In this document: positions 2,741 through 51,511 of the stretch, piece by piece | Layout: the number at the start of each line of letters is the position of its first letter | Position numbering within the stretch: position 1 is the first letter of the stretch | From: a virus | Reading direction: 5' to 3' (one strand) | DNA length: 64,000 nucleotides | Virus record (IMG/VR): IMGVR_UViG_3300031576_000012 | Location: 1 to 64,000 of that record | Translations under genes and position numbers: made by a program | Notes under the pieces: model-generated | What the model was told of the DNA's origin: nothing | Seen by the model: the letters and a program-made list of their open reading frames with translations, nothing else | Database searches by the model: none

Positions 2741-2912
2741 TTGTGAACAAATTGTTCTTGAGATCTGTTCTAAGTGTATATTTTCTTAATCTCTTTTTAA
2801 GATTTGCTAGTTGTACTTTAAGTTCAGCATTTTCAATAATTAATGCTACCTTAGAAACCTTTTTAGCTATCTTATCTATTTCTGTTGCGTCCATCATTAT
2901 TTTAACCTCCAT
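2712..2912 (-). CDS. hypothetical coiled-coil protein
   Basis: Fills the gap between co-oriented genes. Confidence 0.6.
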   Translation of the reverse strand: MEVKIMMDATEIDKIAKKVSKVALIIENAELKVQLANLKKRLRKYTLRTDLKNNLFTNAEAVSKRG

Positions 2913-4510
2913 TTTCCATTAATTGAATTAATCATTTGTCGTGAACCATCGGAATACAACAAACAGGATGTATGGAACCAAGAAGAGGCTCCCACATTGT
3001 AATCTAATTTCAGTTTGCTGGTTGTACCAACTCTCCACACGCTTCTGAGAACTTCAGGTGTATGAGCATGTCCAATTACACATGGTCCATAAGCTTTCTC
3101 AAATGTTAGTAAGCTTCCACCTTTACTACCATTAGCTCCTTTATCCCCGTGAGACCCTAATTCTACCCCTGCAATTTTAAAGCTCTCATCTCTCTTTAAG
3201 AAGATAATTCTCCTAAACTCTTTAAGTTCCGCTACTTTCTTATTAGAAAGCTTTGGAAGATTAACCAAGGCATAAGCAAGAGGATCTTTCCTATCAATCA
3301 TAGGAGCTATCAATTGACTTGCGAATCTAAGATTAGATGGATCAGTAAGATACCTTCCATCTTGAAGATACCTATCTAACACTTCATCATGATTAGACTT
3401 TACAAAGATGAACTTTCCAGGAATCCAAGTGAGTAACTCACTAACCTCAGTGTTAACGATAGATAGTTCTTCTTCTAAGCCCATTCTTTTATCCTCAGAC
3501 AATTGAGCTTTTGTTACTGTCTTGTTCATGTCGTGGTGATTATTCCACTTACCATTAAATACATCATGCCCAACTAAATTCCTTACTCCTACTTCGCTAC
3601 AAACTTCTTTCCAGGCTTGTTTAGCAGAAAGTTCATGCTCTCCAGCATGGTAGTCCCCCATAATAAGGGCCTCTGCACCTAGCTTCTCTATCTTTCCATT
3701 TGGGGAGTAGTATTTACCTAAGTCAAAGAACCTTCCGGTATTAGGTTCTGCTTGTACTTGTCTGTAGAAGTATTTCCCTTCAGGATCTAGCTCAACAATT
3801 AAGGCACCCAACACATGGTCGAAATTAGCTAGATATGAAGTTCTCTTGCTCATATAAACATCTGTTTCATAATCAGCACTAGTAACCGCACCTGTTGTCA
3901 TAATAGGATGTGGCAACTTCTCATTTCCCGTAGGAATAAATTGAAGTCTTTGTTTAGGGGAAGCATAAATGAATGCTCCATCTTTCTGACTTAGCCTAGA
4001 AAGTCCTGTTGTAGGATCAATCTGTTTAGCTGATAGCTGAATCATACGAATATGAATGTTCTTATTTAAGGACAAATCATGCCCGATAATATGTTCATTC
4101 GCTAATGCTGGATCTAAAATCCAATCATCTCCTTGTCCTGGATTGGCGCAAGGAACTATAAGCAACGTAGATTTATTAGCCTTACAATAAACCTTTAAGG
4201 TTTTAAAAAACTTAGTATGAATAGGAGAATTAACTACTGCTGTGGTGATAACAAACCTATTAGACCCTTTAACAAGATCATTTATTTGTTTAAATTTCTG
4301 AGGGTCAAATAAAGAATCACTAATTACCCCCTTAAAACATTCAGGGTGTTCTTCCTTCATATAAGTTTTTAATTGACTGATAGAACCAAAATTATGTCGA
4401 ATAGCTGTCCTGCTAATTTGATACTCTAAGAACTCTCGTGTATTAGGAAGACGCTTATTCTTCTTTACAAAGTCCTTAAAAGCATTAATTATTTCTGGTT
4501 TTTTGTTCAT
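2897..4510 (-). CDS. T5 A1-like metallophosphoesterase/nuclease with N-terminal HTH-like domain
   Basis: FVITTAV, MTTGAVT, GDYH, GHD, SNHD, HGDKGANGSKG, GHAH calcineurin-like motifs; 537 aa. Confidence 0.75.
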   Translation of the reverse strand: MNKKPEIINAFKDFVKKNKRLPNTREFLEYQISRTAIRHNFGSISQLKTYMKEEHPECFKGVISDSLFDPQKFKQINDLVKGSNRFVITTAVVNSPIHTKFFKTLKVYCKANKSTLLIVPCANPGQGDDWILDPALANEHIIGHDLSLNKNIHIRMIQLSAKQIDPTTGLSRLSQKDGAFIYASPKQRLQFIPTGNEKLPHPIMTTGAVTSADYETDVYMSKRTSYLANFDHVLGALIVELDPEGKYFYRQVQAEPNTGRFFDLGKYYSPNGKIEKLGAEALIMGDYHAGEHELSAKQAWKEVCSEVGVRNLVGHDVFNGKWNNHHDMNKTVTKAQLSEDKRMGLEEELSIVNTEVSELLTWIPGKFIFVKSNHDEVLDRYLQDGRYLTDPSNLRFASQLIAPMIDRKDPLAYALVNLPKLSNKKVAELKEFRRIIFLKRDESFKIAGVELGSHGDKGANGSKGGSLLTFEKAYGPCVIGHAHTPEVLRSVWRVGTTSKLKLDYNVGASSWFHTSCLLYSDGSRQMINSINGKWRLK

Positions 4511-6726
4511 TCTTTAGTCTCCGATAATCGGTCTGCAATTATAGGTTCAGCCACCAAAGGAAGACTAAGCTTGTAGTTATTCTCCATGATATCTTTCATG
4601 ATAACTGCTACTTGTTCTGCTTGATCTTCTCTAGCTTCCACAACAATTTCATCGTGAATTTGAATCAACACGTAAGCATCCAAGTTTAATTCTTTGAACT
4701 TCCTTCTCATAGCTATCATTGCTCTACTTACAATACTAGCAGCCGTTCCTTGAATTTTAAAGTTAATACTTAAATTCAATAGCTTATTTACTAGTAGCTG
4801 ATCTGATCTTACCCTAGATTTGAGTAATTTGTCAATCCCTACAAAGCGTCTAACTCTTCCTGTCTCTGTTTTAACGTAACCAAGTTTCATGGCTTCCCCA
4901 TGACAACGGTTAACGAATTTATACAGATTAGGTAATCCTTTCCAGTACTTATCAATCTTTTCTTGGGCCTCATCAAGTTCGCACTGAAGGGTATGCCCTA
5001 GCTTCCACTTCTTCATGCCGTAGGCTACCCCAAGGGCAATAGCCTTAGCTTCTTGCCTGATGTCTCCTGCCCCGTCTGCCTTCATTGTATTGGGGTTTCC
5101 TTTGTAGTCCATACAAAGTACCGCAATAGTGCCATAGAAGTCATCTCCACGGTAATAGGCGTCTATTAGAGCCTTTTCCTGGCTGTAATGGGCAAATACC
5201 CTTGGCTCTAGCTGAGAGTAGTCAGGACCGATAAGCTTATACCCTGGTCTAGCAATAATCCCCTGTTTAATCCTCTTATCTTCTCGTGGAAGATTCTGGA
5301 AGTTAGGTTCCCTACAAGAAAATCTTCCTGAGTCTGTTCCATGCTGAAGCCATCGTGGGCGTACTATACCTTCTTTTTGAGAGGTAAGAATACCATCTAC
5401 ATAAGTACTTACTAACTTAATGATCTTTCGTCTTTGCGAGACTTTAGCAACAAAGCTATAACTTTTAGCAAAGTGATCTAAAACCTCATCATCTACTTGA
5501 GCATTGTTCTTATCTGTGACCTTCATAGGTGTTTCACCTAAGCGATTAAAGAGAAGGTCTTTAAGTTGATCATTGCTGCTTAAGTTAATAACATATTTAG
5601 ACTTTCCAAGTTCTAGATACATCTCTTGACGTGTTGTAAATAAAAGATCTGCGTATAGTTTTTCTAATTCTGTTTGTTGAATTAGCCCCATTTTCCATTG
5701 AAGTAATACATTCTCTGGGTGTGTTTTAAACTCAGCCTCTATAACCTTTTTAACAAAAGAAGTTTCTCCTTTTTTATCATAATAAAGAGTTAATCCTGAA
5801 TTTATATAAAGTTGTTCAAACAGCAATCCTCTACTTTTTAATGGATAAGCTTCTGTTAATAGTTCATTTTCTAAAGCTTCATAATGTTTTAAATAGTTTT
5901 TCTTAAGCTCTTCATGAGCTTCTTTTTCAAGTTGGTCTGCTTCCGCTGTAAGTGTCTTTTTAAGGTCTTCAAAATAAGGGATATCACACATTACCCCTCT
6001 TCCAATCATATGATCAATAACAACCTCATTAAGAGGCATTACCTCATCAGTATAAAAGAAATTAACTAGCCCTTGTATTTCAAGTTCGGTGTGCATTACT
6101 CCAAAAATCTTAGCGGTTAAATCTACGTCTGCACATGCATACTTCCCTAAAATATCTAAGTCTGCCATGTAAATGTCTTTGTGGTCTTTGTTCCATTTAC
6201 CACCATTATGTATTACGGAAGCTTTTAATTCTTCTTGTTCATCTTTGGCTTCCTCCCCAAAGATTAGAACAGCTATATCTTTTAGCCCATGCGGTCTACG
6301 TTCATCAAGTGTGTGTTTGAGAAGCATGGTATCTGCATAAAGATTCTTTAGGCAATCAGCTCCGATAGTTTGTTTAATAACTTGCACATCGAACGGGCTG
6401 TTATGCATAATTAGTTTAGCTTTGGAGTGTTCTAGTAACTCAATCAATCCTGTACGCAAAAGAAACGCTCTATGATCATCAATAGTATCTAGTCTTGTAT
6501 TAGTGATCTTATTTTGTTCATCCCTTTCAACAGTGTAATTGTGCATGGGGAAGTAAACGGCTTCTCCCTCTGCTGGACTAATAGAAATCCCCATAAGCTT
6601 ACAACTAAGAGTATCAAGAGAGTTAGTCTCGGTATCAACAGCTAAAAATCCAACATTTCTTTTTAAAATGTCTAGATAGTTAGTTTGATCTTCAAGGGTA
6701 TAAGCTATGTAATAGTTCTTAGTCAT
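4507..6726 (-). CDS. polA: DNA polymerase family A with 3'-5' exonuclease
   Basis: Exo motifs DTET, HNSPFD, YACAD; pol motifs SGRFS..PNFQN, DYSQLEPR, RQEAKAIALGVAYG, IHDE. Confidence 0.97.
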   Translation of the reverse strand: MTKNYYIAYTLEDQTNYLDILKRNVGFLAVDTETNSLDTLSCKLMGISISPAEGEAVYFPMHNYTVERDEQNKITNTRLDTIDDHRAFLLRTGLIELLEHSKAKLIMHNSPFDVQVIKQTIGADCLKNLYADTMLLKHTLDERRPHGLKDIAVLIFGEEAKDEQEELKASVIHNGGKWNKDHKDIYMADLDILGKYACADVDLTAKIFGVMHTELEIQGLVNFFYTDEVMPLNEVVIDHMIGRGVMCDIPYFEDLKKTLTAEADQLEKEAHEELKKNYLKHYEALENELLTEAYPLKSRGLLFEQLYINSGLTLYYDKKGETSFVKKVIEAEFKTHPENVLLQWKMGLIQQTELEKLYADLLFTTRQEMYLELGKSKYVINLSSNDQLKDLLFNRLGETPMKVTDKNNAQVDDEVLDHFAKSYSFVAKVSQRRKIIKLVSTYVDGILTSQKEGIVRPRWLQHGTDSGRFSCREPNFQNLPREDKRIKQGIIARPGYKLIGPDYSQLEPRVFAHYSQEKALIDAYYRGDDFYGTIAVLCMDYKGNPNTMKADGAGDIRQEAKAIALGVAYGMKKWKLGHTLQCELDEAQEKIDKYWKGLPNLYKFVNRCHGEAMKLGYVKTETGRVRRFVGIDKLLKSRVRSDQLLVNKLLNLSINFKIQGTAASIVSRAMIAMRRKFKELNLDAYVLIQIHDEIVVEAREDQAEQVAVIMKDIMENNYKLSLPLVAEPIIADRLSETKE

Positions 6727-9466: not shown

Positions 9467-10153
9467 TTACCCCTGCTGTTTCTTAATGGCTTCTTGGATA
9501 ACACTCTTTTTAAACATTACATTCGTTGCCTTTGGAAATACTGGGGTAGTTCCACCATGAGCATCTACTACAACATTTGTAGGTACAACTTTTACTTCTG
9601 CAACTGTAGGTTTAGAAAATCCCGTTGGGGCTGAACCCGTTACTGCTACCGTAACTGTTTCTGCTTTAGCTGCTACTGGAGCAGACTTAACAAAAGGATT
9701 ACCAGTAGTTGGCTTAGTAGCAAACCGCTTGCTAGAAGCTGTCGATACTGAAGTTTCACCTGTTTCAATCTCTGGATCATCTGAACTGTAAGAGAACGTT
9801 TGAAGAAGGAAGTACTTAAACCCTCCTGTCAAAGCCTTATACACACCCTTATCTGTTGAGTCAAACCCTTGAACTGGGATACTGACCGTGAGAGTCTCAG
9901 GGGATTCAAGATCTAAGATCTTATAGTCAACTACGAATGTAGTAATCAATCCTGATTCTTTTTGCACGATGGTTAAGCTATTCTCTCTTGTTACAGGAAG
10001 AACCTTAATTTTATGTTTAATTTCCAAGGCTCGGAACTCTTTCATAGCATCCTCACCTTTGACATAGCTATAGTTGAACTTAGCATTAGTTCCTGTCTTA
10101 GACAGAGAGCCAAGCTCAGTGGTAATTGCTGATAGTTTTTCAAGTAGTGTCAT
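9467..10153 (-). CDS. ERF-family ssDNA annealing protein
   Basis: FNYSYV, GFDSTDKGVYKALTGGFKYFL..F....DDPE, low-complexity C-tail. Confidence 0.85.
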   Translation of the reverse strand: MTLLEKLSAITTELGSLSKTGTNAKFNYSYVKGEDAMKEFRALEIKHKIKVLPVTRENSLTIVQKESGLITTFVVDYKILDLESPETLTVSIPVQGFDSTDKGVYKALTGGFKYFLLQTFSYSSDDPEIETGETSVSTASSKRFATKPTTGNPFVKSAPVAAKAETVTVAVTGSAPTGFSKPTVAEVKVVPTNVVVDAHGGTTPVFPKATNVMFKKSVIQEAIKKQQG

Positions 10154-11250
10154 TATTTATTCTCCTCATTTTTAAATATATATTTACTCTTATCCCCGAA
10201 ATGGCACAAGTGATAGTAATCACAAAGTCCATAATTTTTACATGCGTTTAAATTTTTAATTCTTAGTCCTTGATTCATAACACTTGCTAAAGTGGAAAAC
10301 CCGTTCATAAAATCATTTTGCCTATCTTTAGAGATTCTGTCAACAAGTATTTGAACCTTGGCTTCTGGTATCTCATCCCACTCACCTTTACATCTTACCC
10401 CATTTACATCATTATTACAAGTCCTATGTGTACTATCCTTTAGGTACCCACACTTAGAACATAGAGCTTTTCCATCCATTTGTTTCAATAGAACTATATA
10501 ACCGGCTAAATCTGTTCCTACTTCGTCCCCTACTGCTGCTGTATATAGTGTCAGTTGCTCTGCTAAAAAGATAGAGTCTGCATCATAATAAGAGGCAGAA
10601 GTCTTTAAATCAATGATAATAGGCTTATCATATCCTTCAAGTTCTGCTATAAGATCAATATACCCAACAACATCTACTCCTTCTGCTGTTTTTCCTTCAA
10701 TCTTATGTTGAATAGCAATTACCTTTTTAATTTTGGGGAGCACATCTCTTACAAATGCTTCAAGCATTAGAAGTCCCTTATTCTTAAGGGAAATCCAACA
10801 AAGCTTATTAAACATTAAGAATTCATTCTCCTTGAGTGGTTTGTGTTCTTTTTGTTTTTCAGCTTTAATGGCATCTTCTGCTTTAACTTCTAGCTCTCTT
10901 TCCCAACTAGACACAAAGAGTTTATCTTCTGAGGATCTAATAACTACTGAATCATAATCCTTTTGTCGGTACCTCATATTAAGATCATTAACAGCTAGAT
11001 TCCAACCTTTTTCAGCATGATTAAGAAATACATCCTTGTATCCTTTTAATCCTTCTTCCCTAGTTCCATTTTGTACATTGGTTAACAGAAACGCAATGGA
11101 AGTATCAATGGCGATACCAAAACCTAAACTAGAACCCATTTCAATAGGCTTTACACGTTCAATATATCTTAAGTAGTGTTTTTCTTGGCACTCCTTCCAG
11201 GCTTGTGCAGCCGAGTGCGAGACATAAGTTGGCAATTTAATATTACTCAT
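10153..11250 (-). CDS. PD-(D/E)XK exonuclease (RecB/Cas4-like)
   Basis: SHSA..WKEC, GYIDL, IIDLKT, QLTLY, C-terminal C...CDYYHLC. Confidence 0.88.
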   Translation of the reverse strand: MSNIKLPTYVSHSAAQAWKECQEKHYLRYIERVKPIEMGSSLGFGIAIDTSIAFLLTNVQNGTREEGLKGYKDVFLNHAEKGWNLAVNDLNMRYRQKDYDSVVIRSSEDKLFVSSWERELEVKAEDAIKAEKQKEHKPLKENEFLMFNKLCWISLKNKGLLMLEAFVRDVLPKIKKVIAIQHKIEGKTAEGVDVVGYIDLIAELEGYDKPIIIDLKTSASYYDADSIFLAEQLTLYTAAVGDEVGTDLAGYIVLLKQMDGKALCSKCGYLKDSTHRTCNNDVNGVRCKGEWDEIPEAKVQILVDRISKDRQNDFMNGFSTLASVMNQGLRIKNLNACKNYGLCDYYHLCHFGDKSKYIFKNEENK

Positions 11251-16621: not shown

Positions 16622-16804
16622 TTAATACGTTTCGTCTTCTTCTACTACTTCATCTTCATCGCTTAATGACTTAAGAATATCTTGAGTTTCTTGACGTTTA
16701 ATCTCTTCACTCAATCTTTCTTCAAGATAATAGACTACTTCTTCTACATTTTCCATAGTCTCTATCTCGTCAATAAGTTCTTCTAGTAATCTAGTTGTAT
16801 TCAT
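16622..16804 (-). CDS. small acidic hypothetical protein
   Basis: E/D-rich 60 aa coupled ORF. Confidence 0.6.
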   Translation of the reverse strand: MNTTRLLEELIDEIETMENVEEVVYYLEERLSEEIKRQETQDILKSLSDEDEVVEEDETY

Positions 16805-17484
16805 ACCTCTTCCTGTTCTATCTCTGTAAATTTCATTATTAACTTCTTTGCTTTCTTCAGTCTATAATACGCTGAACTTACATTCTCGTCAATCTTTTTT
16901 ATTTCCTCAATTGTTTTAAAGTTACAATAGTATTGTACCAGAATGTCTCTGTAAATAGTAGATAAAAATCTACCAAACTTCTTTAATAGTCTTTGATACT
17001 CTGCAAATTCTCTAAGTTTTTCTAAAGCTCCGTCTCTTTTTTTGTCTCCCTGAATTGCAGTAAATATAGTTGCTGCTGGGATATTCTGTTCTTTAGAAAT
17101 CTCTTCATAGCTCTTTCCAAATAAAAAATGTTCTTTAATAATCATCTTGTCACGTTCAGATATAGCACCCCAAGGAATATCATTCATAGTTAGTTTATCT
17201 CTTTCTATAGTAACACATGCTTCATTTTGCATATGTTGATAAGAAAATATATCTTCCATCTTTGGAGATAAACTAAACGGAACAGTTGGGAGTGTCTTTT
17301 TATTCCCTCGTTCTATATAAGCTCTCATTTGTGGACAGAGTTTTGTACATGAGTCTCTAATTTCGCAAACTGCACAAGGGGTTACTAATTCACATATACC
17401 ATCTGCATCGGCACAAGGTTGTCTTTTAGGACAATGTGTACATACATCCTGTCTATATTGAATTTTAAATACTTTCTCATTCAA
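16801..17484 (-). CDS. Cys-cluster plus sigma70 region 4-like HTH transcription regulator
   Basis: Two CxxCx5C motifs, then two region-4-like segments (ISERDKMII..HFLFGKSYEEIS; LSTIYRDIL..YYCNFKTIEEI...AYYRLKKAKK). Confidence 0.65.
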   Translation of the reverse strand: MNEKVFKIQYRQDVCTHCPKRQPCADADGICELVTPCAVCEIRDSCTKLCPQMRAYIERGNKKTLPTVPFSLSPKMEDIFSYQHMQNEACVTIERDKLTMNDIPWGAISERDKMIIKEHFLFGKSYEEISKEQNIPAATIFTAIQGDKKRDGALEKLREFAEYQRLLKKFGRFLSTIYRDILVQYYCNFKTIEEIKKIDENVSSAYYRLKKAKKLIMKFTEIEQEEV

Positions 17485-27261: not shown

Positions 27262-28002
27262 CTAGAACGTGATTAAATATAACTTCGTACTTGACTCAAT
27301 TACAATCATAAGGTCACTTCTAAAGAAGACCTCATCTGCATTAGGAGTCAACGATACGATTTTTTGGTTGGAGGTACAGCTAGATGTTGGATACAAATCT
27401 ACTGCACTGGAACCACTAGACTTAGCATATAAGCCTGGTACAACCAAACTACAGCTAGTTCCTACAGTTACAGGAGTTAGGCTTGAACCATTTTCCCCAT
27501 CATTCCCGTCTTCACCATCAGCTCCAGCGGGGCCTTGTGGACCAGCAGGCCCTTGAGGACCAATTGGACCTTCAGGACCAGTTTCTCCAATAGCACCATC
27601 AGATCCATTTGCACCGTCTTCTCCGTCTGCTCCATCACTTCCATTTTCACCAGCTGGACCTACAGGGCCTTGTGGACCTTCGGGACCAGGAGCACCATCA
27701 CAAACAACTGCAACTGAACTCTCGATAATTTCATTAAGATCCAAATTACCGCTTCTATTAAGATCCAAACCTGAAGCAAATAGGAATCCAGAACCCGATT
27801 GACAAACATTCTCTTCAGAATTCAATCGTGTGAAGGTGATAAGACTATTAAATCCGTCTTGACCATCTGCACCATTAGCACCATTTGCTCCGTCTGCACC
27901 ATTTACCCCATCTAGGCCAGTAAGTTTTACTTGCTCTAGGTCTCCGCAGCTACAGAGTACCAGGGTTAAAGCTGCTAGAATTACTTTCTTAAACATTTTC
28001 AT
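27262..28002 (-). CDS. collagen-like lipoprotein
   Basis: Lipobox LVLCS-C; two Gly-X-Y tracts flanking a C..G.G....[14 protein letters not shown]....VCDG module. Confidence 0.85.
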
Positions 28003-28013
28003 TTCTCCTTAAA

Positions 28014-28691
28014 TTAAAAGTCCAAACCAATACCAATGAAGCCTGACTTATTAGTAAAGCCTGCACCCGTTACTGACAATCTGTTATTAAACAGAGGTGT
28101 CAAGAATGAGTAGCTAAGTCCAGCTTCAAGATCGAAGTCTTCCTTAACTACAAAGGTATTAGGGGCTACTAATTTAGCCTTATTCACACCTGATGGAGCA
28201 AGTCCACCAAGTACTGCTACTCTATGTCTACGCACCAATTCTTTAACAACTGGTACTGTTTCTGTCCTTGTTTGAATCAACGGACGTACTAAGATTACAT
28301 CTACTCGCCTGTTGGCTTGCAAATGCTCAGGTAGGTTATCATTTGGAGCAAGAGGTTTCTCTTCTCCTTGGGATACTTCTACCACAATTTGATCTTCTGG
28401 AGCACCAGCTGATACAAGGGCTGCTTTAACTGCATTTGCTCTACGTTCTGCGAGAGCTAGGTTATAAAGTCGGCCTGCACGTTTATCAGCATTTCCAATA
28501 ACAGCTACGATTAGCTTGTTTGCTTTAATACTCTCTGCTGCTAGTTGAAGTTTTTCAACTTCGTTTTCTCTAATAGCAGATTTGTCTGTATCAAAGTGTA
28601 CAGACGTAATTAGTTTATTACTCTTCGCCTCTTCAGCAAAGCATACGCTGCTAACTAACAAAGCAGCAATAACTACTAAGTGTTTAAACAT
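28014..28691 (-). CDS. OmpA-family peptidoglycan-binding protein with C-terminal beta strands
   Basis: Signal peptide; VHFDTDKS, GNAD..., YNLALAERRA, GEEKP, NRRV; ends GFIGIGLDF. Confidence 0.9.
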   Translation of the reverse strand: MFKHLVVIAALLVSSVCFAEEAKSNKLITSVHFDTDKSAIRENEVEKLQLAAESIKANKLIVAVIGNADKRAGRLYNLALAERRANAVKAALVSAGAPEDQIVVEVSQGEEKPLAPNDNLPEHLQANRRVDVILVRPLIQTRTETVPVVKELVRRHRVAVLGGLAPSGVNKAKLVAPNTFVVKEDFDLEAGLSYSFLTPLFNNRLSVTGAGFTNKSGFIGIGLDF

Positions 28692-43475: not shown

Positions 43476-46148
43476 TATCTTCTCTCCTTTTAAATTTTAC
43501 GTTGTTTTACGTTCATTGTCAAATGACTCTTTTAAACAAAGAGTATCTTATAAATACATTTGGTATTTGTTGGTCTGAAGTGGGGTACTTTCCTTGCTGC
43601 CCACCACCAGGGTACCTTTGCCATGAGACCTTATTCTGTTTCTCATGCTCTTTGTTGTAAGGTATTATCCTTATCTTGTCTTTAGGTATGTTCATTTCTG
43701 TATAGTCTTTCTACTGAACCCTATACTAAAACTACAGAATCCAATGAATAATGCAATAACTGTGCCAAATATAAAACCCATGTATATTAAAGAGAACACA
43801 ACTCTAAGACACTCTTTAAAAAATTCTATTACTATTTCAATCATATTAATCTCTTCCTCCCAACCAATATTTAATATTATACCATATCGTTAAGGTAATT
43901 TTAATAGCATAACACATGAAGTCGTTAAATTCTTTTTTGAAATTAGCCAATTTAAAACTCCTTTTAGTTACTTACCATTGATGATTGTAAAGTCACCGTC
44001 ACCACGTACAGGGGCGATACTCCTTACTCCCATTTGACTAATGGTGTATGCCGTATCTTTCAATGACGCTTTCTTTTGTAGGTCTTTACATATTTTAATT
44101 GCATCCATCATTGTGATATTATCAATCAATGTTTCAATTACTCCATTAGACCGCTTGTATATAAGACAATTCTTCATTTGTATACCCTTTTAGTTATATT
44201 GTTGAACATCAAATACATTACTATTAATCAATTCAATTATGACATTCCCATTTTCTAATTCATTCTCATGTTGCTTAACGAATGTTGAAATGGCCAATTT
44301 ATCAAGGCTTTTTATAATCCACTTCAATGAATGGGATGCATGTACAAAATTTTTATCTGCATGTTGTCCTTCACTGATAGCTGTTAGGTTACTATCTAGC
44401 CCTTTCAATACTTCCAATGTCCTTTGCTCTGATTCAGTCATGTTACTTGCTCCCTACAAAAGGTTTATCATCGCTAGGTACTAAGTCAATCAAGTTTGCA
44501 TATTGAACTACCGGCTTTCTACCACGCTTTAGCTGCAAGCTTTCATCAAATACTTTCACTTGCTCCAATAGTGACGCGGCTATCTCATTACCCGCTTTAG
44601 CATCTTTTAATAGTTTAGTTCTAACATTGCGCCTTGTCTTCTTATCTAGTACCACACCTGATACTACTTCCCTAATTACAGTTTCACTAATTGTCGTTTG
44701 TCCCTTTGGCATGTTATCGTCCCTTTCTATAAGTTAATTGAAACGTCTTTAATAAAACATTCATCGCAAAATCTCACAATTGTACAAATACTATCAGCTA
44801 CTTCTTTAAATTTTTTATATTTATTTTCTTTTAATCCTTCTTTCAAAATATCATTTGATATTGTATATTTTTTATTGCATTTTGGGCAACTAGCATCATG
44901 ATATATCATAAAATTATTCCTTTCTTTTCGTACAATCATTTAATAGTTCTAGTGTGAATGGATCAAGATATCCTTTTTGAATTCCCATTTCATCTATTGC
45001 GTCTAGCATCTCACTTGCCGCTTGATAGGCTACCTCAAGGTATCCATCTCCTGTCAATTCAGCATGGGTACCTAATGCCCCTACTGCATCATACAACTTG
45101 CCTCTTAGCCCTAGATAATCATACTTTGTCATAATTACCTCACGAATGCTTTTACATATGCATGTACAGCGGGGGGAATTTGAGCAAACAAATACATTGC
45201 CCCAATAAAATATCCTACTAGCGCCAACATGATTGTTACAAATAATATTTTTTGTTTAGTTTCAAATATCATTTTATTATCCTTTCTTTGTTATAGTTGT
45301 TCACAATACTCTATTTGTTCCTCACCTATTGCCAAAATAAGAGTATCAATATCCTCCTCTTGACAGTCTACTACAAAAACTTCACCGCTTACAAGCTTTA
45401 TCTCATACGTTGAATTAATCACATTAATTTACTCCTCTATAGTCAAAGTCTTGATATGAACATTCATTGTCTTGACTGATAATCTTTGCAATTCTATTGC
45501 CTGCCAAGTCTTCAATGTAACTGTCATGCCCTTCTACCATTGTAGTCAATAGTTCCCCTTCATCTAATAGGTCACTAATCTTTTCTAATGTATATCCTTT
45601 CTTAACTATCATAATATCTTGTGATACATGACCGCTAACTGTAAAAGATATTCTACCTGTTTTTGAATTAGCCAATTTAAACCTCCCTTTTAATATTCAT
45701 TATATAGTTAACTAATTTGTTAGTCAACATTTCTTGCTTTCTTTGTTTTGACACTGCCCCTATAAAAAACCTTCTCATTGAATTACCATATCTTTTTTTA
45801 TTACACTTGCCGCACATGCCCTTACCTAATCCCCTTTTTAGCATGTATTTTACTTGCGTATGATATTCTGCATTACATTGTTTACAATTTACTTTGCATG
45901 ACGTAGTTAATCCTTCAATTGGTGTTTTCATTATCGTACCTCAATTTCTTCAATACTAACCCATGAGTCATTTTCAAAATGGTTTAAGTCTTCCACTGTT
46001 TTAATTGTTTCTTTTAAGTCTTCACTATATTGCTTTAAGATATCCTTTTGAAAGTTTAAAGCTTTCTTTTTTTTGTCGAATACTTCAATTTGTCTTCCAT
46101 TGTCGTATTCATGTGTTAGTACATATACTTTCATTATATTGTCCTTTC

Positions 46149-46727
46149 TTAGCATCGTGTTAGATTCTCAAACAAGTACCCGTTATCATCTTGCGGCAAA
46201 CAATCGTTACGCGCTGCAAAGATAGATATTTCACATTCTTTGCACAATTCTACTCTTTCTTTAATTGACATATTCTCCCATGTTTCACATGCTAGTTCCC
46301 ATTCCATTTCAGAAAACAAGTCTTCATTAAGAATAGGGTAGCTATCTAGGCTTTCTTGAATCAATGCCCATTCAATGAATACGGGGGTTATGTTGCCCAT
46401 TTCATCTATTGGCTTAATACTAAACCCGTCAACGTGCCCTACTGCCCAATGGTTATGACTTTCCATTCTAATATGCCCTGAATTCTCAAAAGGTTTTAGT
46501 TTTTCCTCAATAACCTTTGCATTGCATTGTGTAAGTGTATCAGCGTCACGGTTTGAATAATACACTATGCCCCAATTTTCAGCGTCTTTAGGTTTACCAA
46601 ACCAAACAAAACTATCAAACTTTGCCCAATTGCCGCGTACTTCATTAGCAAACTCTAAAAGCTTTTTCGGATTAGCCAATATTTTAGACTGTTTTAGCAT
46701 GTTGCACCTTTTTGTTAAATTGTTCAT
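46149..46727 (-). CDS. conserved early phage hypothetical protein
   Basis: RDADTLTQCN...HWAVGHVD...LDSYPILNED..SEME. Confidence 0.7.
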   Translation of the reverse strand: MNNLTKRCNMLKQSKILANPKKLLEFANEVRGNWAKFDSFVWFGKPKDAENWGIVYYSNRDADTLTQCNAKVIEEKLKPFENSGHIRMESHNHWAVGHVDGFSIKPIDEMGNITPVFIEWALIQESLDSYPILNEDLFSEMEWELACETWENMSIKERVELCKECEISIFAARNDCLPQDDNGYLFENLTRC

Positions 46728-46898
46728 TGTTTTCTATTTGATGATACCCATTTCTAAAAAATACTTGTTTCCCTATATCTTGTTTTTGCACCCTTCCAAA
46801 AAAGTCATATAAGAATATATTTTTCCCGTGTTTTGTTCTATGGGCGCTAATCATCCCTTGCCCTATATCCTGTTTTTGTATGGTGTAAACATGCATAA

Positions 46899-47033
46899 CT
46901 AAGCTTTCCTTTCTTGTCTGAATAGGCTTAAAGCTTCACTCTTAGTATATCCAAAGTAAACCCGCTTGAACAAATACCCTTGCACAATATCAGTTATGAC
47001 ATATGCCCCGTGAATGTTCTTAGTGATAGTCAT
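46899..47033 (-). CDS. small protein (44 aa) missed by the ORF track
   Basis: MTITKNIHGAYVITDIVQGYLFKRVYFGYTKSEALSLFRQERKA with AGGGGG SD. Confidence 0.65.
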   Translation of the reverse strand: MTITKNIHGAYVITDIVQGYLFKRVYFGYTKSEALSLFRQERKA

Positions 47034-47044
47034 ATATAACCCCC

Positions 47045-47599
47045 TTATATGTAGAAAGCTTGCCCATTAGCAAGAAACGTCATTTCATTACATTGTGCTA
47101 ATTCAATCAAGCTTTCATCACTTGTTTGATGTTCAATATCACTATACCCAATTTTTTCAAACTCCATTGACAAGCTTTGCAAGAATTCAAGGCAAGCGTT
47201 TTCTATCAAGCCAATTGTTTCAGAGTTTGCCCTATTATCACAATGTGTAAAAAGTGTCATGCTGTTTTTATAGGTATAATGCCCCTTAGTCTTAACGTCT
47301 AAGCTTTCAAATTCTACAGCGTCAAGTATTTCAGGGGTTATGCCCTTGCAATGTTCTAGCACGTTTGCCCTTGTCAAATTCCCTTCGAATGCTACCCCGT
47401 CCCCTTGGCAACAACTCAATGACCAATTAGCTTTTAAATCAAGCTTTCTTTCTTCAAGTAACATTGCAAAATTATCTGAAACAATTTCATAAATAAACCC
47501 GTTTTCATATTCTGATTGTCTAAGCTTTTCAATTGCCCTTTCCTTTGCCTTTGGTTCTAATTCTTCAATGCTATAAACTGTTATTTCTACTTTTTGTAT
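47045..47599 (-). CDS. phage/plasmid early protein (family often labelled 'antitoxin of toxin-antitoxin stability system'), ATA start proposed
   Basis: Frame open 45 codons upstream of ATG 47464: IQKVEITVYSIEELEPKAKERAIE; CQGDGVAF, TSDE...NEMTF..NG. Confidence 0.6.
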   Translation of the reverse strand: MQKVEITVYSIEELEPKAKERAIEKLRQSEYENGFIYEIVSDNFAMLLEERKLDLKANWSLSCCQGDGVAFEGNLTRANVLEHCKGITPEILDAVEFESLDVKTKGHYTYKNSMTLFTHCDNRANSETIGLIENACLEFLQSLSMEFEKIGYSDIEHQTSDESLIELAQCNEMTFLANGQAFYI

Positions 47600-48723
47600 G
47601 TTATAACTCGCTTTCTATTATTAAGGTTTTCAATTCTTCCCCTGTACCATCAAAAGGCATTGGTATATATCCTTCATAACACCTATTAGCATAATCTGAT
47701 ATACAAACGTCTGATAGTTCCCAATGCTTACCCGTTTTAGTAAAATATGCATATGATTCACAGTTATGATTTTCTTCATTGCATTCATTATCTTTACAAA
47801 TATCTAAACTCAATTCATTCAAGTATTTTGTTGTATTGTTCCATTGTGTTTTAGTCATATTGTCCCCTTTACTTTACAAGATTGTCTAAAATGGTTTGAT
47901 CTACTTCTTTGCATTCCATGCCCGAAAATTCAGTGCCTAACCATTTATTGATATGCCTTGACGTTGTAACGCTCCATTTTTTGCTTGTACGTACTACCCC
48001 TAAACCACTAATAAAAGCGGCTACGGGGGTTTTATATGAAAAGAGAATAGAGTTATTTTCTGTTTCTAGTACCGTCATGTTACTTGCGTATGGATTAATT
48101 TTCATTTTATGCCCTTTCTTGTTTGTTGTTTATTGCCCTATTCATTAAGCTTACTATTCCATGCATTCAATGTCAAGCTTTATTTCAATCAATCTATTAT
48201 AAAGATTTACATGCTCTTTTGTATTTTCCTTGTCTTCTCTAATTAAGCGTAGGCTTTCACTAATCAGATAATTGATATTTTCAAGCTTTGCTTGCTTAGT
48301 CATATAGCTTGCCTTGCCTGTCTTAAAGAAGCTTAATCCGCTTTGTAGTAGTGTCATGTTGTCCCCTTTACTTGTCTACCCAATTAATTAACCCAATGAA
48401 TAACGCGCCAAAATCAACATATATAATGACCATAGAAGCGATTACAGCTAGAACTATTGCCGCTATATACTCTTTACCTTGCTTTGTCATTATTTCTTAC
48501 CTTGAAGCTTTCTAATCATTGCGATATCGCCACGCTTTACCGCTTCCGTCAATAACACTGAAAGGGGGTTAACAGGCTTTGACGTTTCAGCCTTAACAAC
48601 GGGGCGGCTATTTTTAACCCCATTCAATGATCGTTCAATACGTCTTACCTCTCTATCATTATCGTATATGTCTTTCATGTTGTCCCCTTTCACTTCATTC
48701 TGTTTATTGTTGCCCATATATAG

Positions 48724-48752
48724 AGAGTATCAAACTAAGCTTACTATGTCAA
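48724..48752 (-). promoter_or_regulatory. early sigma70-type promoter
   Basis: TTGACA-N17-TACTCT with TGn extension, at the head of the leftward gene array. Confidence 0.65.
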
Positions 48753-49384
48753 CATTTAATTTCAGCAATCCTTCAAAGGAATGCTAAACCTATCTATCGC
48801 ATATAAAGGGTTAATAGGCTATGATAGAGCATAGATAAATCGTTGATATTACAAGGAAATATGCATATTATTGATATTGTTAGTTATTATTAGCAGTAAC
48901 CGGATTTCCCCAACATGCTACATAGCACTATATACTATGGCAATAAACCTACCTATTATCCCTATTGCTCAATATTGCCCATTCCTATATATACCCTAAC
49001 CCCCTATGTAGTACATTCTTATATGCAAGCTTAGTGCCAATTGTATTAGCGGCGCTAACATACATGACCATACATCAAAGGTTTGTTCCCTCTGCAACAT
49101 ACATGCCAAGGTACAAAGATATTGCTTGACATATAATCCTATTCCTGGTATAATATATGCATGTGTTATGTATATAAGCATAATTCATTGCACCCTATAT
49201 ATGTATTATTACATATTGATAATTGAATGTCAATATATAAATTGATTAATGATTTCAATATGATATGGGTATGGCATAGGGTATGCATACATGATAAGGG
49301 GTACGGTTATATGCACATTGTATGCCATAGGCCACTGGTACCCCAAATGATAACAACAATTTTAGCAAAGGAACAATCATTCCT

Positions 49385-51511
49385 ATGAGTTTAATGGATG
49401 AATTACAAGATCATATTCATAACTGGATGAATTCACACGGAAAAGAGCCTCCTTGTATTAATGTGACTCTCTCTGAGTATAAAATAATAGAGAAGGAATT
49501 ACTCAGTAACGCTAATACCCTCTATATGCCATTACAGGGGGGAGCTAAACTACTGAGTTTTGATGGAGTTCATATTAACATAGCACAAGAATCTGATCTT
49601 GGGGAGTCAATAGATGAGGAACAAGAGCAAGTCTGGTATGCTCAAGAGTATGACCAAGAGTAGTATAAAGGTAGTACTTAATAAAAAGATTGACAAAGCT
49701 ATTACCGATATGTTACAATACGTTATAGATAGGGTAGACTTAGAGAAGGCAGAACTAGCTGAAGAAGAACAGGATAGACTTGAGAGAGAATATGGAAGAA
49801 CCAAGAATAAAGACTGAAGAGCACAGTTTTATGCATCAAGGGGACTGTATAGGACATACTCATAAGTTTACAATTAAGATTAGTACGGTTCCAAATGTAA
49901 CTCCTGGGCAGCTTGTAGAAGTATTCAGGGATGACGTAAAGATTATGAACTATATGATATTAAACGATCAGTGTCCAAGGGTGATCTCTACATACTTTAA
50001 AGAAGAAGAGGGAACCCAGGATGAGTATAATATAAAATATTCAAAAGAAGAGGAATAAACATTCCTATGTCAGATCCTAAAGATATATTGGCTGAAATTA
50101 TGGACCAGGATGAATATAAGCCTAAACGAGAGAACGCTGTGATCAAGATCCAAATACAGGATAAGTATGGTCAGGTTTACGGCGTTACTGAAACGCTCGT
50201 GGGCGCGGTTGCGGATTATGACCCCCGCGATGTCTCTGAAAGAGTGGAGGAGAAGCTCCTTGTCCTCCTTCAGGAGATCTTATACGGAACACGAGATCCA
50301 GACGAGGATAAAGAAGAGCGGGAGGTAGACAATGAGCAAACCATCAAAGATTACGAGCAAAAAGAATAAGGTCTCTTTTCCTAATGGAAGTATGGTGGTT
50401 ATGGATGAGCATCAGTTGGATGCTTTGACCTACCTTACAGCTGAACTTAAGAACTCCAATCAGTTTGTTTATGGTACATTCTTAGATATCTGGAACGAAT
50501 TATATGAGAAAGAGGCTGAAAACGAAAGCCTTATAAGGGAATATGAGCAGAAATCGAGCTAACCGACTGATATCATGGATAATTTCGGTGGTCGCGGCGG
50601 TTTTACTCTACCTTTACGTGAAAACCCAGGTCAAATAGGCGTGAGATGAGAAAAAAACGGAAAAAAACGGAAAAACAGAAACCGCTGGGTCCGGTACCAA
50701 AGACCCCTAAAGAACTTTTTGAGATACACATGGACAAAATCGAGCCAGGACTGGCAAAAGCAGTAGGAAAGTATGCGGATTTCATTAATCCCTTCTTAAA
50801 GATGCCTAAGCTTACTCCTGATAGACAATTAATCAATAAAGAAGAAGAGAATGAACGATTAATCGAGGAATATCAACAAGTTAACAAGAAAGAGGAGTCT
50901 TAAATGGAATATACACAATCTAAATTGGTTTTAGAGCTTCTATCCAAAGCGTTAGAGTTCTATGCCAAGGACGAGAACTATGAAACGGTACCAACAGATG
51001 ATGACACAGATAGCTTTGCGTTACTCCCTAGTGAAGTAGAACGTGATCGTGGTCGGGTAGCGAAGGAAACATTACACAATATCAGGGAGATTATGGGAAA
51101 AGAAGAGAAACATGGATAGGATAGAACAATTTGTCAATGAGTATGTAGGATTTATGTCTATAAACGACACAGATGCCGCAGGACAAGCGGAACTACTAAA
51201 GGAGATGGTCAAGGATCTCCTTGTAGAAGATCGTCTCAGGACGCTCAATATAATCGAAATTAAAGGTATTCCCTTAGACAGTCAGACCAAGAATACAATC
51301 TTGGGGGAGGAAATCAATGCCTTTTAAGGTTTATACATCAGATGAGGCTAAACTGGAAGCCAAGTTGAATGAAATCCAGGAATCAGGGGAGAATGTGGTT
51401 CAAGTTGTACTTATGGTATGGCAAGATGCAGAATCCGCTTATTTTAAAATTATATCGTTATCAATGGCTCCTTGGAAGCCTAAACAGGAACCAGAAAGTC
51501 AAAAACAATGA
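49385..51511 (+). other. cluster of small acidic proteins (49385-49663, 49614-49817, 49780-50058, 50067-50369, 50332-50562, 50646-50903, 50904-51119, 51112-51327, 51317-51511)
   Basis: Overlap-coupled plus-strand ORFs; several share a C-terminal motif. Confidence 0.7.

Follow-up and report, generated by a model that had tools for sequence, protein, structure and literature searches.

One block of early genes in the genome of an uncultured phage (IMG/VR virus record IMGVR_UViG_3300031576_000012) carries the five-letter word GGGCA at a density found nowhere else in that genome. The block (positions 45076 to 48980) lies in the leftward early arm of the 64,000 nucleotides (nt) analysed here, called the window below, which are the first 64 kb of the 94,996-bp record. 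Our analysis reveals that GGGCA in this block is a real, selected signal, which is strand-specific, local and specific to the lineage of this phage. As to how it is read, we rank first the possibility that it is a density-coded word, which a factor of the lineage would read during transcription, either on RNA or on the strand that is displaced, and we tentatively give this reading a probability of about 0.35.

An array of GGGCA in the early block

The array and its densest part are the following.

45076-48980, minus strand: array of 25 GGGCA words, 21 of them intragenic (in all three frames) and 4 intergenic.
45677-47464, minus strand: saturated core, in which 16 of the 20 GGGCA positions permitted by the proteins are realised.

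The block had been pointed out in an initial annotation, made from the letters alone, as holding 25 TGCCC on the plus strand, that is, GGGCA on the sense (minus) strand, and an exact recount agrees with this number, with the 7 TGCCC given there for the first 10 kb and with the presence of copies between genes, which we locate at 47534, 48110, 48134 and 48976; a further copy, at 48711, stands in a leader, provided that translation begins from the ATG with a Shine-Dalgarno sequence. The absence of GGGCA from the plus strand of the block, which the same annotation also noted, is correct as a count and uninformative as evidence, about 0.4 copies being expected.

In the full record the plus strand contains 75 TGCCC and 37 GGGCA, and the block holds one third of these TGCCC in 4% of the genome length, which corresponds to 6.4 copies per kb against 0.4-0.8 per kb elsewhere. 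Scaled from the rest of the minus-coded arm, 3.0 copies would be expected in the block (Poisson probability 4e-15). When all 4-, 5- and 6-mers were scanned in 4-kb segments over the entire genome, TGCCC in the segment at 45001 (25 copies against 2.2, P ~3e-18) took the second rank genome-wide with only AAAA above it, and the first rank once homopolymer runs are set aside; the next ranks were taken by the overlapping words TGCC, TTGCC and TTGCCC, and the next unrelated non-homopolymer 5-mer was weaker by about 8 orders of magnitude. Outside the block both orientations are present (50 TGCCC and 37 GGGCA on the plus strand) and the counts on both strands fit the shuffle expectation, so the word is neither enriched nor avoided there. 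The spacing of the copies shows neither helical nor codon periodicity. Paralogous or repeated DNA as the carrier of the word is ruled out as well, since a repeat search gave nothing beyond 27 nt at about 70% identity.

The word is mostly written in synonymous codons

That local choice of Gly and Ala codons might account for the enrichment was the objection raised by the initial annotation itself, and it clearly fails: the reading frames, the shuffles and the counts of permitted sites bear out a strand-polar signal at the nucleotide level, and together rule out codon or amino-acid composition as its cause. On the sense strand, 6 copies begin in frame 0, 9 in frame 1 and 6 in frame 2, the other 4 being intergenic. 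A synonymous shuffle within the block, which preserves each protein and the codon usage of the block itself, gives 7.0 +/- 2.1 copies with a maximum of 15 in 2000 shuffles, against the 21 coding copies observed, and a shuffle of codon order expects 4.6. Applied to 23 blocks genome-wide, the same shuffle yields z-scores of 3.0-6.2 for the top 5-mer, the highest of them resulting from six copies only, against 6.4-7.1 for GGGCA in the block, which also has the largest absolute excess.

A more direct measure is given by the permitted sites, defined as the positions where some synonymous choice yields GGGCA given the protein sequence. Their density in the block (10.0 per kb) is like that in the two arms (9.2 and 12.5 per kb), whereas the realised fraction is 20 of 36 (56%) in the block against 31 of 377 (8%) and 20 of 548 (3.6%) in the arms, from which it follows that the proteins are unchanged and the codons are changed. 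With more than half of the synonymous options filled, and 80% in the core, the counts argue for strong selection on each copy and for a mechanism that depends on density.

Form of the word and a second enriched word

The word has a strict 3' end, since the block has a single GGGCT where 3.2 are expected, and neither GGGCG nor GGGCC is present. At the 5' position AGGCA (7 against 2.6) and CGGCA (4 against 0.3) are raised and TGGCA is not, thus the consensus is V-GGCA with an invariant 3' end. A longer concealed motif around GGGCA was looked for and rejected, because the flanks are merely A+T-rich. No Rfam family was found in 44000-50000, and a pairing partner was rejected as well: the block has no TGCCC on its sense strand, and the candidate non-coding RNA at 52.7-53.0 kb has a single copy.

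A second word is enriched in the same region.

46659-49032, no strand assigned: AAGCTT, mostly as AAAGCTT on the sense strand, in all frames.

In the coding sequence of the block 14 copies of AAGCTT are found against 2.9 expected (z = 7.2), distributed over all three frames; some copies belong to -35 (AAGC-TTGACA) or -10 (TAAGCT) elements, and genome-wide the word has 83 copies, which is about 2.6 times a rough estimate from base composition. Even with GGGCA masked, the block is still the most deviant 4 kb of the arm in tetranucleotide use, and its G+C content equals that of the neighbouring DNA.

Promoters and genomic setting

The genes between about 49.2 kb and base 1 point leftward and those between 49.4 kb and the end point rightward; the GC skew switches where the coding strand switches. 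The following sigma-70 type promoters are predicted around this junction and within the block.

49205-49233, minus strand: leftward promoter TTGACA-17-AATAAT with TG extension, 11 of 12 consensus positions; first promoter of the array-bearing arm.
49126-49154, plus strand: divergent rightward promoter TTGACA-17-TATAAT with TG extension, 12 of 12.
48724-48752, minus strand: internal promoter TTGACA-17-TACTCT; the GGGCA at 48715-48711 begins 8 nt past its -10 element.
48148-48176, minus strand: internal promoter TTGACA-17-TAAGCT; the GGGCA at 48138-48134 begins 9 nt past its -10 element.

The consensus-like form of the divergent promoters indicates that the host uses promoters of the sigma-70 type. 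The array starts about 230 nt downstream of the leftward promoter, and all 25 copies are sense-oriented and downstream of leftward promoters. The word itself is not a promoter element: there is no general link between GGGCA and matches to the -10 and -35 elements (4.64 against 4.62), and just two copies stand at predicted transcript starts. The leaders below the internal promoters (48100-48140 and 48680-48715) are rich in CAA and AAC (e.g. GGGCAATAAACAACAAACAAGAAAGGGCATAAAATG), and resemble A-R-N repeats or a translational enhancer.

The array is absent from the relatives

Two complete IMG/VR genomes, G001 and G002, are collinear relatives of this phage. In G002 (117 kb, TerL 63% identical) GGGCA is not clustered and no other word within genes is comparable, the top 5-mer reaching a z-score of 3.8. 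In G001 (112 kb, TerL 65% and capsid protein 78% identical) 5 of the 32 permitted sites in the first 4 kb are realised against 40 of 472 in the remaining early arm, a difference that is not significant. Since both complete relatives lack the array, it is lineage-specific, and therefore a recent gain in this lineage, open to dissection by synonymous recoding that leaves the proteins unaltered.

Part of the block can be compared with G001 directly.

47869-48490, minus strand: three promoter-proximal genes syntenic with G001, with 78%, 33% and 92% amino-acid identity.

At 47919 the window has GGGCA and G001 has AGGCA, a synonymous difference between TCA and TCG; at 48110, in a Shine-Dalgarno sequence, GGGCA corresponds to GGACA, and at 48134, in a leader, to AGACA. 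The -35 element of the internal promoter at 48148-48176 is conserved in G001, and nearly all the small genes of the block are missing from it. A stretch of 125 nt is about 96% identical between the window and G001; it contains the gene of a 40-amino-acid (aa) hydrophobic protein and the Shine-Dalgarno sequence downstream of it (48368-48490 in the window, 903-1022 in G001, locus L124), and the remaining genes of the two phages are 30-78% identical in protein. As judged by sequence comparison, so high an identity points to recent exchange or strong constraint, and a relative which shares a recent DNA exchange probably occupies the same niche. That G001 lacks the array despite the shared stretch and genes argues for a reader tied to the lineage rather than to a shared host. 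Phage and protein-atlas searches for the host returned only distant matches or matches to other viruses.

An array of another kind sits at the divergent early/late junction of G002, in a position matching that of the array in the window: (A)TATATACTGAGT(A) recurs there 17 times in one orientation, over 1.4 kb that are largely non-coding (positions 3776-5170 of locus L002, on its minus strand). This may be an iteron or operator array.

Genes of the block

The array region is tiled with small minus-strand genes, among which two carry the word close to saturation.

46149-46727, minus strand: 192-aa gene with motif SHNHWAVGHVDG, of a conserved phage family; 7 of 8 possible GGGCA realised.
47045-47464, minus strand: 139-aa gene, phrog_5162; 5 of 6 possible GGGCA and 5 of 5 possible AAGCTT realised.

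The family of the 192-aa early protein is widespread among phages and unannotated, and its invariant residues lie in GNW...F.W and in the motif listed above; Pfam gives nothing for the protein, and its AlphaFold model (predicted local distance difference test score 81) has no fold match in PDB. Conservation of the array together with this gene family was rejected, as 86 loci of the family have no consistent GGGCA cluster, and an apparent cluster in locus L007 is unremarkable, ranking only sixth among the 5-mers of that locus. At the codon level, 55 homologues which retain the conserved HWAVGH stretch were compared: codons that make GGGCA are used at the conserved WA and GH positions in 8 of 56 and 10 of 56 cases, respectively, and among the rows inspected only the gene of the window has them at both. 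Among the 12 proteins of the block no nuclease family was matched, and neither a RegB-like gene nor a repressor was recognised.

Gene content of the phage

The phage has a contractile tail, with sheath and baseplate genes, and its TerL and A1-like metallophosphatase are distant relatives of those of T5-like phages. It encodes PolA, a primase/DnaB-type helicase, a class II ribonucleotide reductase, ThyX and PhoH, as well as a recombination module made up of an ERF-family annealing protein (9467-10153) and a PD-(D/E)XK nuclease (10153-11250). The primase/DnaB-type helicase has 670 aa and is labelled 'primase' in PHROGs; Pfam recognises only DnaB_C in it and neither a TOPRIM nor a zinc-binding primase domain, and its N-terminal 390 aa have no sequence relative in PDB. 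The A1-like 'DNA transfer protein' (2897-4510), which adjoins PolA, is 41% identical to a protein of an Ochrobactrum jumbo phage and 28% to the A1 of T5-like phages, and its gene is absent from G001 and G002. Further genes encode a protein with sigma-70 region 4 (16801-17484), a collagen-repeat protein (27262-28002) and an OmpA-family protein (28014-28691).

Other local word clusters have their own explanations. The CACCAT (ATGGTG) cluster at 24-28 kb is explained by the collagen-like gene. On the sense strand of the large baseplate/fibre genes, at genome positions 86000-92500 (L092), GCTGG, TGGTGG and CTGG are clustered, probably as a result of Gly/Trp-rich repeats; only 3 full GCTGGTGG octamers are present on the plus strand.

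How the array may be read

A word of 5 nt cannot mark single sites and must therefore act via its density, and such a word with strict polarity is easiest read on a single-stranded nucleic acid or by a tracking enzyme. The lineage has written GGGCA into its leftward early arm, which host-type promoters drive, on the non-template strand and over about the first 4 kb, by synonymous codon choice in the genes and by point changes in the leaders. We propose that the word is read on a single strand exposed by transcription, be it the mRNA of the early genes or the non-template DNA that is displaced, by a factor particular to this phage lineage, and the effect might concern the fate of the earliest transcripts or of the region, such as shut-off, decay, protection or anti-termination. 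We infer the single-stranded or co-transcriptional mode, the identity of the reader and the effect alike. Transcription-coupled reading is favoured because all copies are sense, because leader copies stand at predicted transcript starts and because G001, the relative with signs of recent DNA exchange, has no array.

Several points weigh against this proposal. Sense orientation has a prior of 50% for any oriented DNA signal. The predicted RNA accessibility at GGGCA is no higher than at control sites, and the word is not avoided in the middle and late genes, unlike what is expected of a cleavage signal. Strong host-type promoters run on leftward to at least 37 kb without GGGCA, and no terminator was found at the left edge of the array. 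Family and fold searches of the block proteins were uninformative and no reader was found among them; part of the pattern could moreover be inherited from a donor.

To our knowledge, only a few readers of one-strand word arrays are known in phages, namely RecBCD for Chi, the repressors for stoperators, and RegB. For transcription-coupled reading, stoperators and the GGAG sites of RegB would be the nearest precedents by analogy. In Cluster A mycobacteriophages such as L5 and TipsytheTRex, stoperators are numerous and asymmetric, they are oriented according to the direction of transcription, and reversal abolishes their function (PMC9283540). The array resembles them in this respect, with all 25 GGGCA on the sense strand, whereas a stoperator is a duplex site of 13 bp in a short gap between genes, bound by a known repressor of temperate phages, and such sites are spread genome-wide (PMC9283540); the word here has 5 nt, is mostly intragenic and does not extend beyond a 4-kb block. 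With only 5 nt conserved and no repressor recognised, the array does not fit a stoperator-type duplex site of ~13 bp. RegB is a phage-encoded sequence-specific factor, and its GGAG sites mark the early mRNAs of T4 (PMC1702504), thus being, like GGGCA, a very short sense-strand word in early transcripts; however, they lie mainly in Shine-Dalgarno or intergenic sequences and need further sequence context (PMC1702504), while 21 of the 25 GGGCA are intragenic and only 4-5 are intergenic, one of these inside a Shine-Dalgarno sequence.

Regarding other polar DNA signals, the initial annotation had suggested one that is Chi-like or guides translocation, on a DNA end that enters first, which the present results do not bear out. 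Signals of the KOPS/FtsK type, with a genome-wide skew that switches at the terminus, do not describe the array, since the GGGCA enrichment is purely local, nor does an orientation bias of the type III restriction kind (T7/EcoP15I), both orientations being present outside the block. The Chi-like alternative is rather unlikely in our estimate, and it is the rival that we take most seriously. It holds that GGGCA/TGCCC is the word of a host helicase-nuclease of the AddAB/RecBCD type near a DNA end, where many co-oriented copies would protect linear DNA, incoming or replicating, from further degradation and favour its recombination. Short G-rich Chi words do exist, an example being the 5-mer AGCGG of Bacillus subtilis, and the array is strand-polar (25:0), dense, independent of frame and in excess of the codon-usage expectation, as such a signal should be, with no avoidance elsewhere required. 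Phages offer precedents as well, since LLS has 20 of its 23 Chi sites co-oriented and concentrated near one end, the orientation of Chi in MD8 is 32:0, and in LLS, MD8 and P1 alike a short word exceeds the expectation from codon use, almost entirely on one strand and regionally (PMC12315714). Those clusters, however, consist of a known 8-mer Chi with a known host and DNA end in phages without a recombination module of their own (PMC12315714); the word of this phage has 5 nt, and the relatives have no array. The Erf and PD-(D/E)XK module is a further difference, because among lambdoid phages those that own such a module mostly have no Chi clusters (PMC12315714). Each end of the record, which has no terminal overlap, is also 45 kb away from the array, although a collapsed terminal repeat at 45-49 kb is possible in view of a TerL nearest to those of T5-like packagers with long terminal repeats. 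None of the Chi words known from E. coli, B. subtilis, S. aureus and L. lactis shows enrichment in this genome, the 80% saturation of permitted sites exceeds what Chi recognition should need, and neither relative has an equivalent intragenic word, even though G001 shares near-identical DNA.

Less probable still is a priming zone by an origin of replication, in which VGGCA would be the template site of the phage primase-helicase, with a GCA core and a cryptic 3' A; the sites would lie on the strand displaced by leftward transcription, beside the divergent promoters and the skew switch, and permit quick retrograde synthesis. The primase of SP6 recognises 5'-GCA-3', identical to the core of the array word, and in primase triplets the 3' base, although cryptic, is essential (PMC5737085). 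The sites of T7-family primases (GTC in T7, GCA in SP6) are strand-specific words of 3-5 nt, read on single-stranded DNA, with an invariant 3' end and a tolerant 5' side (PMC5737085); GGGCA, which keeps GCA and tolerates A, C or G at its 5' position, resembles them in sequence only. The phage encodes the 670-aa primase/DnaB-type helicase, the array adjoins the switch of coding strand and GC skew, and G002 has its 17 co-oriented iteron-like TATATACTGAGT at the same place. On the other hand, primase sites have no known local clustering or saturation, the searches of Pfam (no TOPRIM or zinc-binding primase domain) and PDB (no sequence relative) give no sign of a T7/SP6-type enzyme, a 4-kb zone with 25 sites far exceeds the need of any known origin, the saturated core lies 2-3 kb away from the promoter region, and again the relatives are without an array. 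The two remaining explanations are less likely. One of them, for which we see a small chance, regards the pattern as an undecayed signature with little or no present function, which the core genes brought from a GGGCA-rich or GGGCA-selected donor. It accords with the deviant tetranucleotide use of the block even when the word is masked, with the lack of the block genes in G001, and with the finding that 12 of the 21 coding copies fall in the 192-aa and 139-aa genes, which have homologues elsewhere; it is at odds with a G+C content that matches the neighbours, with the 55 homologues that seldom use GGGCA-making codons at WA and GH, and with copies which also arose in leaders and, by synonymous change, in a gene syntenic with G001, and no close donor was found. 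Last comes the idea that a protein of the phage or of the host binds the copies weakly as duplex DNA, acting as coat, silencer or decoy, perhaps together with AAGCTT, which we hold to be improbable: two unrelated words, GGGCA and AAGCTT, are indeed both enriched at the nucleotide level in one block, but 5 bp are too short for specific duplex binding, strict co-orientation would be unnecessary, and helical phasing is lacking in the spacing.

Returning to transcription-coupled reading of a dense word, a more specific and rather doubtful version of it takes the array as the cis half of a lineage-specific control system, in which a phage factor would read the 5-nt word by its density, the candidates being the A1-like metallophosphatase nuclease, which both array-less relatives lack, or one of the small early proteins unique to this phage. 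If this is true, the factor would either time the shut-off of early genes or label the early DNA of the phage as self, so that a nuclease spares it, and the Chi principle would have an analogue that is encoded by a phage.

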